Part shown: positions 27,131 through 28,459 of the stretch, piece by piece
How positions within the stretch are numbered: position 1 is the first letter of the stretch
Layout of the letters: each line of letters opens with the position of its first letter
NCBI RefSeq assembly: GCF_000022265.1
Contig: NC_011979.1
Location: forward strand, 1,440,001-1,472,000
DNA length: 32,000 nt
DNA from: Geotalea daltonii FRC-32
GTDB taxonomy: Bacteria; Desulfobacterota; Desulfuromonadia; Geobacterales; Geobacteraceae
Direction of reading: 5' to 3'
Notes under the pieces: model-generated
Told to the model about the DNA's origin: nothing
Seen by the model: only the letters and a program-made list of their open reading frames with translations
Database searches by the model: none
Translations under genes and position numbers: made by a program

Positions 27131-28459
27131 ATGTCGGAAAAGGTGATGAACAAGAGCAGATTGATGCTGGTTTCGCTGTTGAGCGTTTTTGCAATAGCAG
27201 CACTTGCCATCTGGGGCTGCGGGACGAGCGGATACGAAAATCCGTCCACCGATGCGGTGACGACGAAAACCGCTACCGCCCTGATTCAGGCTTCCGATCT
27301 GAAGCAGTGGATTGACGCCGGGCTGGTGAATAAGGCGGGAGGGTATGACCGGGTGGTCGTCCTGGAAGTAAGTACGGAAACTAATTACAACGGAGCCCAC
27401 ATAGCCGGTGCCCAGTACGTCAACCTTACTAACGACCTGATGGAAAATCGCTACGAAGGGCCAATGCTGGCTGGACAGATGGTGCTCTCCGGTACCAAGA
27501 TGGACGCCCTGATCCAGAAACTGGGCATTGACGCCAACACAACCATCGTCTTTACTTCCTCAGAGGCGGAAGTCGGCTCACCCTGGAATTTGACCCGTGG
27601 CTACGCCACATTCCGTTATTGGGGTTTTCCTAAAAACCGGCTGAAGGTGCTGGATGGCGGCAACAAAGCCTGGAAGGCTGCAGGCTATGCCATGACCACC
27701 GCTATTCCGACAATCACCAAATCCACCTACGTTGCGACCCCCAACAACATCAACCGGGTACGTACTGACCTGCGGGCCTCATTGCCTGAGATGATAGCTG
27801 CTGCCACTGCCGGCACTGCAACCAATGACTTTATCGATGGCCGCGCTACTTCCCCGACCGTTCCGGGGCCGACAACCGACCTGATCGACGGAACCAAATA
27901 TGTTGTCTTCGAAGGTCTGATCAAGGGGGGCCGGGCATACAGTTATAACAACCTGCTCGACGCTACTACAAAACAATTCAAATCCATTGCCGACATCAGA
28001 ACAGGCCTGAACATCCCTGCTACAGCCAAATCGGTCTACGCCCTCTGCCGGGCCGGCAATATCGCCTCGGCGCTTTTCTTCGCCATTGACGGCTACGCCT
28101 ATTACAACGAGGTCGAAACCGGCGCTTTGAAAGCTGTATGGTACGACGGTTCTTGGGGACAGTGGGGCCTCATGTCGTCGAGCACGGCCAATGGGGGCAA
28201 GCTCGTCGCCGGTTCAGTGTGGGATACAAGTGCCTTGACAGATTCTCTTACCTACAATGTGGGCAGAACTCTTCCTGTTTCCGGAACACCCACCCTACTG
28301 ACAACAACCCACATAATCAACTACGGCAGCCGTCTCAACAATCCCGAACCGTCTCTAGCCGATGGCAATCAGCTTGAAGCAGCCGATGCAGCCTATCACA
28401 GTCCTGTCACGACCAGTACCGGTGGTGGGGCCGCAGGCGGAAGTGGCGGCGGCTGCTGA
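27131..28459 (+). CDS. Rhodanese-like lipoprotein (ExtH-like) with a Gly-rich tail ending in Cys
   Basis: AAAGGAGG lies before ATG 27131. The lipobox-like sequence is LAIWGC. The N-terminal rhodanese-like domain reads IQASDLKQWIDAG...VVLEV...GAHIAGAQYVNL. The second domain has the catalytic loop ALCRAGNIAS. The C-terminus is TSTGGGAAGGSGGGC*. Confidence 0.8.
   Translation: MSEKVMNKSRLMLVSLLSVFAIAALAIWGCGTSGYENPSTDAVTTKTATALIQASDLKQWIDAGLVNKAGGYDRVVVLEVSTETNYNGAHIAGAQYVNLTNDLMENRYEGPMLAGQMVLSGTKMDALIQKLGIDANTTIVFTSSEAEVGSPWNLTRGYATFRYWGFPKNRLKVLDGGNKAWKAAGYAMTTAIPTITKSTYVATPNNINRVRTDLRASLPEMIAAATAGTATNDFIDGRATSPTVPGPTTDLIDGTKYVVFEGLIKGGRAYSYNNLLDATTKQFKSIADIRTGLNIPATAKSVYALCRAGNIASALFFAIDGYAYYNEVETGALKAVWYDGSWGQWGLMSSSTANGGKLVAGSVWDTSALTDSLTYNVGRTLPVSGTPTLLTTTHIINYGSRLNNPEPSLADGNQLEAADAAYHSPVTTSTGGGAAGGSGGGC

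Follow-up and report, generated by a model that had tools for sequence, protein, structure and literature searches.

What is the function of the Gly-rich tail, tipped with a Cys, at the end of the rhodanese-like lipoprotein ExtH? The question is raised by extH of Geotalea daltonii FRC-32, which lies in a 32,000-nucleotide stretch of contig NC_011979.1 (RefSeq assembly GCF_000022265.1, positions 1,440,001 to 1,472,000, forward strand), referred to below as the window. The protein matches the NCBIfam model NF040901, whose curated name is 'selenite/tellurite reduction operon rhodanese-like protein ExtH', with 404.4 bits (cut-off 200), over profile positions 2-430 and residues 8-422. Since this coverage stops at residue 422, the tail lies outside the curated profile. 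In summary form, the C-terminus reads TSTGGGAAGGSGGGC; the sequence ...AYHSPVTTSTGGGAAGGSGGGC closes the 442-residue open reading frame (ORF) and is followed by TGA. A first-pass annotation, made from the letters of the window, had described the last 15 residues as nearly all Gly, Ala, Ser or Thr with a final Cys. This description is accurate: 28412..28459 encodes residues 428-442 and the stop, 14 of these 15 residues are Gly, Ala, Ser or Thr, and the last is Cys.

Conservation and true end of the ExtH tail

All 139 ExtH sequences in our alignment, which reaches from 100% down to 33% identity and includes three families of the order, end in Cys, and 138 of them end in Gly-Cys. Chance would not come near such a recurrence. 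The protein has only three Cys, the lipobox Cys30, the catalytic Cys306 and the terminal Cys442, and all three are invariant in the 139 sequences. A terminal Cys is also found in 118 of 120 database homologs (43-100% identity); the other two are a 347-residue fragment and one sequence ending AYRGM. The first-pass annotation had held that a tail and terminal Cys not conserved among orthologs would speak against its proposal of a carrier Cys, but they are invariant to about 33% identity and recur across phyla. In a library of clusters at 50% identity, 112 representatives extend to the C-terminal anchor motif; 76 of them have a Cys end, about 10 have a Gly-Tyr end, and about 13 have no tail. A search of the ORFs of at least 70 residues in this genome found no other with an ExtH-like Cys tail, besides the shorter LQGC end of ExtJ.

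The tail follows an invariant Tyr422. Its length after this residue is 18-23 residues in the 139 orthologs, with a mode of 19, and its composition (Gly 38%, Ser 17%, Thr 14%) is one of small uncharged residues; only nine of the 139 sequences have charged residues within the last 15 positions. So narrow a length range is unusual for low-complexity sequence. Could the tail be a functionless low-complexity sequence that is merely drifting? The NCBIfam profile leaves it out, and the tail sequence itself is variable, as would be expected of drift. However, the invariant Gly-Cys, the narrow length, the constrained composition, the cross-phyla pattern and the synonymous codon variation described below all argue against drift, which we regard as extremely improbable.

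An AlphaFold2 (AF2) model of ExtH was built from 93 sequences, with a predicted local distance difference test score (pLDDT) of 89.7. The last helix in this model spans residues 414-421, and there is a low-confidence linker, residues 31-49, after Cys30. The AlphaFold check proposed in the first-pass annotation takes us as far as a prediction of disorder in the tail, where residues 430-442 have pLDDT below 50. Judged by its contour length, about 70 Å when extended, the 20-residue thread could reach the active site or span a porin. The top Foldseek matches of ExtH are the tandem-domain thiosulfate/3-mercaptopyruvate sulfurtransferases 1uar, 3hzu and 1e0c (E 1e-17 to 1e-13). At its other end, ExtH bears a lipoprotein signal peptide with the lipobox Cys30, and lipidation is predicted from the sequence.

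Is Cys442 really the last residue? The stop codon here is TGA, a short in-frame extension lies behind it, and the operon encodes a genuine selenoprotein, all of which would suit a selenocysteine (Sec) after Cys442 and thus a Cys-Sec end (GGGC-U-SGGTA) like that of thioredoxin reductase. However, in 69 distinct ortholog tail DNAs the stop after the terminal Cys is TGA in 29, TAG in 27 and TAA in 13. In 23 ortholog loci, it is TAG in 15, TGA in 6 and TAA in 2, and the in-frame extensions are unrelated. The extension past the extH TGA (SGGTA here) is conserved across orthologs in neither sequence nor length, and the equivalent read-through of ExtJ would extend about 80 residues into extK. On the basis of stop-codon usage and the non-conserved extensions, Cys-Sec read-through at the extH stop was rejected for the family, and its probability is virtually nil. 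Thus, given the mixed stop codons and the unrelated extensions, Gly-Cys-COOH is the true C-terminus of ExtH.

A DNA-level or G-rich regulatory element behind the Gly run was also rejected, on the codon usage of the orthologs: the 69 distinct tails make use of all four Gly codons, and the terminal Cys codon is TGC in 51 and TGT in 18. This synonymous variation indicates that the protein, rather than a DNA motif, is under selection.

Linkage of the tail to the porin ExtI

The gene directly downstream of extH encodes the porin ExtI, and this arrangement was examined in three samples. The first was drawn through the rhodanese gene and contains 79 loci from GTDB species genomes, with 65 Cys-tailed genes that have enough downstream DNA. 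About 62 of these 65 have an ExtI-type porin directly downstream, usually within 70 nt (in this count, the porin of locus L084 overlaps the threshold set for distance, and L082 opens a tandem pair of genes). The taxa represented are Geobacterales, Desulfuromonadales, Syntrophales, Nitrospirota and Krumholzibacteriia. In the second sample, from Nitrospirota, ExtI follows all nine Gly-Cys-tailed genes. The third sample was drawn through the porin from 301 genomes of the phylum, and here an ExtH-like gene lies upstream of 11 of 11 ExtI with at least 45% identity. Ten of these ExtH-like proteins are Gly-Cys-tailed; the tail of the eleventh ends APGYR and has Cys-Cys inside it. The tail-less paralogs (L165, the same as L081, and L182, the same as L094) have no porin alongside, and ExtI-like porins are found elsewhere in their genomes.

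ExtJ and ExtKL, which the operon also encodes, occur in only a subset of the loci. Since the synteny from the rhodanese, Nitrospirota and porin samples agrees, the conserved unit is tailed ExtH with ExtI. The tail therefore travels with the Cys-bearing porin and not with ExtJ or ExtKL, which favors a porin-coupled relay or docking over a purely intramolecular role. Of all the evidence from gene context this linkage is the strongest, and the first-pass annotation had overlooked it.

ExtI contains a single Cys, Cys147, which is invariant in 61 of 61 orthologs (42-100% identity); 50 of these have exactly one Cys past the first 25 residues. AF2 models ExtI as a barrel (pLDDT 81.7), in which strands 5 and 6 are joined by a loop of 34 residues, 135-168. 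In the model, this loop sits at the position of L3, the pore-constricting loop in classical porins. Residues 142-151, around the Cys, have pLDDT below 50 despite their conservation. The top Foldseek matches are the anion porins OprP (2o4v) and OprO (4rjw), and a sequence search against solved structures gave no match at E <= 0.01. Remoter Porin_O_P relatives have Thr, Leu, Ile or Ser in place of Cys147. Sister-clade porins of about 36% identity keep the Cys; within 1.5 kb of them there is an orfX-like gene but no ExtH.

Some related loci depart from the usual size or copy number. Longer ExtH-like paralogs, of about 650 and 820-890 residues, end ...GGGC and precede an ExtI-type porin (L045 2272-4212; L134, L156; P0121-P0124), and some genomes, such as that of L045, have two complete extHIJK sets. 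In the draft genome of Geotalea toluenoxydans JCM 15764 (L110 5977-8643), extH is in three pieces and extI in two, with the terminal GGGGC still readable; this fragmentation reflects either frameshift sequencing errors or pseudogenes.

Possible roles of the terminal thiol

We suggest, with slightly better than even confidence, that Cys442 is a mobile carrier or relay thiol on a swinging arm, which would pass sulfane sulfur or selenium among the porin, the rhodanese site and, via ExtJ, the cytochrome MccSep (ExtKL). In this mechanism, Cys442 would take up or pass on sulfane sulfur as persulfide or polysulfide, or selenium as selenotrisulfide. Its exchange partners would be Cys147 in the constriction-type loop of ExtI, and Cys306 of ExtH, which is Sec in some lineages. 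In Geobacter-type operons, the next recipient of the sulfur would be ExtJ, which is small and periplasmic and likewise ends Gly-Cys, and ExtJ would hand it on to MccSep, a periplasmic polysulfide reductase. Any covalent reaction at Cys442, the direction in which the cargo moves, the entry of the thread into the pore and an intramolecular hand-off from Cys306 to Cys442 are inferred.

The rhodanese site provides one indication of such chemistry. Many Nitrospirota ExtH homologs have an in-frame TGA in place of the catalytic Cys codon (...HVY-U-RTGVIAS), at the position equivalent to 28046..28048 of the window. These homologs are probably Sec-containing rhodanese lipoproteins that have been split in two by gene callers. 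A replacement of Cys by Sec would mark the site as doing chalcogen or redox chemistry.

The operon cytochrome provides another. In G. sulfurreducens, MccSep serves the respiration of elemental sulfur (S0) as a polysulfide reductase of the periplasm (PMC13510729), and the read-through AGHSIPDGUPTPNR of extKL in the window matches the Sec peptide of MccSep proven by mass spectrometry (PMC13510729). An earlier framing of the system had been selenite and tellurite reduction. According to the paper that described MccSep in 2026, it is not known how the substrate gets into the periplasm, and the authors compare the enzyme, which has a His/Cys haem, to SoxAX or TsdA run in reverse (PMC13510729). A relay through Cys442 would fit both the question of substrate delivery and the SoxAX-like His/Cys haem. 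The physiological substrate of SoxAX is the SoxY arm.

ExtJ may be the carrier from which MccSep receives its substrate. Its LQGC end, already pointed out in the first-pass annotation, is universal. ExtJ of the window ends DELQGC, followed by TGA, and all ExtJ orthologs end LQGC before TGA, TAG or TAA. In every ExtK locus where the position was examined, among them the window and L054, L088, L099, L109, L120, L035, L039 and L050, a small ExtJ-like gene ending (A/M/E)LQGC lies directly upstream of extK, even where BLAST misses it.

Several observations weigh against the relay. Three Cys-tailed genes (L064, L079 and L121) are without an adjacent ExtI, although two of the three are at contig starts. 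The tail-less sample is small, with two lineages, and related genomes are not independent observations. In one subfamily, the Gly-rich thread and the porin neighbor are kept, but the tail ends Pro-Gly-Tyr, with no terminal thiol. The Pro-Gly-Tyr loci belong to just a few related lineages. In 7 of the 9, extH and extI are separated by the gene for a small exported protein that ends KKPR(L/I)KYR(D/E)xxxC(G/S/W)C, and these C-x-C proteins may supply the C-terminal thiol in trans. The other two loci (L175 and L183) have no such gene. The thread and the porin are therefore kept in the absence of the thiol, and the thread may mainly dock.

Docking as the whole function would make the tail a structural element on or in ExtI that holds ExtH at the porin, with Cys442 in a static disulfide with Cys147 or a mere contact residue, and with no carrier role. 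This is consistent with the strict synteny of the tail with ExtI and not with ExtJ or ExtKL, and with the dependence of ExtH outer-membrane localisation on ExtI (Jahan 2019, in the summary form given in PMC8981825). Furthermore, the low confidence of the conserved residues 142-151 of ExtI is as expected of a region that is ordered by a partner, and the Pro-Gly-Tyr variants, with thread and porin but no thiol, lend docking real weight. However, ExtI keeps Cys147 even in loci whose ExtH tail is Cys-less. Most of the Pro-Gly-Tyr loci add the separate C-x-C protein, which suggests that the thiol itself is needed, and the invariant catalytic Cys or Sec points to chemistry in the module. On balance, we consider docking without a carrier role unlikely.

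A role for Cys442 within ExtH alone would be that of a resolving or protective Cys. It would attack a persulfide, selenylsulfide or sulfenate on Cys306 and so free the product, or cap the site as an intramolecular disulfide redox switch, with no transfer to other proteins. Mature ExtH has exactly two Cys, Cys306 and Cys442, both invariant, and the tail is predicted to be flexible. Thioredoxin reductase has a resolving Cys in its C-terminal tail. Such a Cys is also established in APS (adenosine 5'-phosphosulfate) reductase (PMC1175818). This role would leave the porin linkage, the invariant porin Cys and the trans-encoded C-x-C proteins unexplained, and it appears quite improbable.

Alternatively, the terminal thiol and the porin Cys might bind Fe or another thiophilic metal, with no carriage of sulfur or selenium. 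A response of the ext cluster to Fe(III) and Fur has been reported (PMC5877670), and the G. sulfurreducens outer membrane is thiol-dense, with many thiols close enough for bis-thiolate Hg binding (PMC12915048). However, the scaffold is a rhodanese with a Cys or Sec active site, and the operon partner is a polysulfide/selenite reductase (PMC13510729). ExtI has been linked to selenite and tellurite reduction, and the phenotype of the extI mutant is with these substrates and not with Fe(III) citrate (PMC5877670). Metal binding is therefore very improbable as the function of the two thiols.

The carrier role of Cys442 can be taken a step further. The ExtH thread would lie in the lumen of the OprP-like ExtI, and Cys442, Cys147 and Cys/Sec306 would form a thiol relay that carries zero-valent sulfur (or selenium) from the cell surface across the outer membrane, with the ExtJ Cys presenting it to MccSep. 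The cargo would then cross the membrane as a protein-bound persulfide or polysulfide. We put this extension forward tentatively, as possible rather than probable. If it is true, ExtH and ExtI would be the outer-membrane proteins with thiols that were postulated long ago to mobilise insoluble elemental sulfur and have never been identified. Furthermore, the substrate of MccSep would be carrier-bound and not free, and the pathway would resemble the Sox system run in reverse.

The way in which bacteria gain access to insoluble elemental sulfur has long been a gap in knowledge. According to PMC6335251, Rohwerder and Sand (2003) proposed that extracellular S8 is attacked by thiols of outer-membrane proteins and enters the periplasm as protein-bound persulfide; these proteins were postulated for sulfur oxidisers (Acidithiobacillus) and never identified. 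A relay through Cys442 fits this old proposal of S8 activation by outer-membrane thiols. Unlike the Acidithiobacillus-type postulate, however, ExtH and ExtI occur in sulfur reducers and disproportionators. The pair is found in several phyla of these organisms, so the answer would be widely applicable. Four strictly conserved Cys/Sec, in the ExtH thread, the ExtI loop (its lone Cys), the ExtJ tip and the rhodanese site, make up a concrete chain of residues open to mutational tests. The answer would be relevant to selenite and tellurite uptake and to nanoparticle formation as well.

Comparison with known systems and other features of the locus

How does ExtH compare with known sulfur carriers and C-terminal arms? 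Sud of Wolinella succinogenes is a periplasmic polysulfide-sulfur transferase with a rhodanese fold that feeds the molybdoenzyme Psr. Both Sud and ExtH have the rhodanese fold and are thought to bind polysulfide sulfur on a Cys for a respiratory polysulfide reductase. Sud, however, is a soluble single-domain dimer without a lipid anchor, a C-terminal Cys tail or a porin partner. The DsrC/TusE arm and the GCUG tail of thioredoxin reductase are flexible C-terminal redox arms that work between a buried catalytic center and a partner; the DsrC arm carries two Cys, and thioredoxin reductase uses Cys-Sec. ExtH has no homology to DsrC/TusE or thioredoxin reductase; it has a single tail Cys and a rhodanese fold, and it does not classify as a DsrC. 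A precedent for a thread in a pore is RcsF, a lipoprotein with a disordered linker through the lumen of the OmpA, OmpC or OmpF barrel. The RcsF linker is N-terminal and has no chemical role, and threading of ExtH is hypothetical, with just the synteny, the composition of the tail and the published dependence of ExtH localisation on ExtI in its favor.

The first-pass annotation had likened the tail to the swinging arm of SoxY. The C-terminal peptides of SoxY (in SoxYZ) and ExtH are analogous, in that each is flexible (for ExtH, by prediction), rich in Gly and equipped with one Cys, which in ExtH is a proposed carrier. The motif is not the same: the carrier Cys of SoxY is internal (GGCGG), whereas the tail Cys of ExtH is the very last residue (GGGC-COOH). 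The ExtH arm, of about 20 residues, extends from an enzyme, is linked to a porin and would act in a reductive pathway; the Sox pathway is oxidative. The SoxY swinging arm was described by Sauve et al. (2007), as cited in PMC6335251 and PMC11237559. It presents covalently bound sulfur to partners that include SoxAX with its His/Cys haem, and MccSep likewise has a His/Cys haem. With a conserved, Cys-tipped tail that is predicted to be disordered, the likeness holds as a reasonable working analogy, but it does not extend to homology. No SoxY homology was found for ExtH or ExtJ: a Pfam scan gave Rhodanese only in ExtH and no significant family in ExtJ, and the Atlas shows ExtJ as a small barrel, neither SoxY-like nor immunoglobulin-like.

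ExtH of G. sulfurreducens (GSU2940, in the extHIJKL(MNOPQS) cluster) is the ortholog of the protein studied here, with the same rhodanese lipoprotein architecture, and we see no difference in kind between the two. The gene order is also shared with the G. sulfurreducens cluster: extH, extI, (orfX), extJ and extKL, with a divergent LysR gene. The genes for ExtH, ExtI, ExtJ and MccSep are known. Among the papers that could be searched, we found none with a mention of the ExtH tail, its terminal Cys or the ExtI Cys. The features of the locus are collected in Table 1.

Table 1. Features of the ext locus in the window and of related loci; positions are those of the window except where a locus is named.
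Feature	Position	Strand	Description or basis
extH	27131..28459	+	Tandem-rhodanese outer-membrane lipoprotein, 442 residues
Cys30 of ExtH, lipobox Cys (LAIWGC)	27218..27220	+	Invariant in 139 aligned sequences
Rhodanese active-site loop of ExtH, C306-RAGNIAS, residues 306-313	28046..28069	+	C306 invariant in 139 sequences
Tyr422 of ExtH, invariant anchor; end of last helix, start of tail	28394..28396	+	Alignment and AF2 model
C-terminal tail of ExtH, residues 423-442 (HSPVTTSTGGGAAGGSGGGC)	28397..28456	+	139-ortholog alignment, pLDDT
Cys442, terminal residue of ExtH	28454..28456	+	Invariant
TGA stop codon of extH	28457..28459	+	True stop, not Sec (ortholog stop usage)
extI	28526..29731	+	OprP/OprO-like anion porin, 66 nt downstream of extH; NCBIfam NF040900, 717 bits; AF2; Foldseek
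Cys147, sole Cys of ExtI, motif RENLEACEMPLTLDRSLF, loop 135-168	28964..28966	+	61/61 orthologs
orfX	29792..30118	+	Small exported protein ending RIEWAQPLE, conserved ExtI companion; synteny of homologs
extJ	30169..30501	+	Small periplasmic beta-barrel protein, only Cys is the last residue (DELQGC); NF040942, 65.9 bits
extKL (MccSep)	30554..31909	+	Pentaheme selenoprotein polysulfide reductase; NF040886, 438 bits
Sec codon TGA of extKL	31529..31531	+	Read-through ...AGHSIPDGUPTPNR
TGA at the catalytic position of ExtH homologs	L078/L164, L178, L085/L169, L090/L172, L091/L177, L170, L176, L179, L175, L183, L094/L182		
Small C-x-C-ending exported proteins	L080 2039-2341; L124 4198-4539; L085 7542-7856; L091 7536-7898; L170 3033-3407; L176 3101-3385; L179 3027-3377		

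The small gene orfX lies between extI and extJ, and a family search with its product gave no match. In many loci, a homolog ending (R/K)IEWAQPxE is encoded either after extI or before extH, and one also follows a sister-clade, Cys-bearing porin without ExtH (L159 5572-5898). The gene upstream of extH, at 25402..26907, encodes an exported protein in which a CXXCH haem motif (CMNCH) precedes three rhodanese domains. This protein matches two kinds of NCBIfam model, those for rhodanese-related (seleno)proteins and that for TsoB, with scores under the cut-offs.

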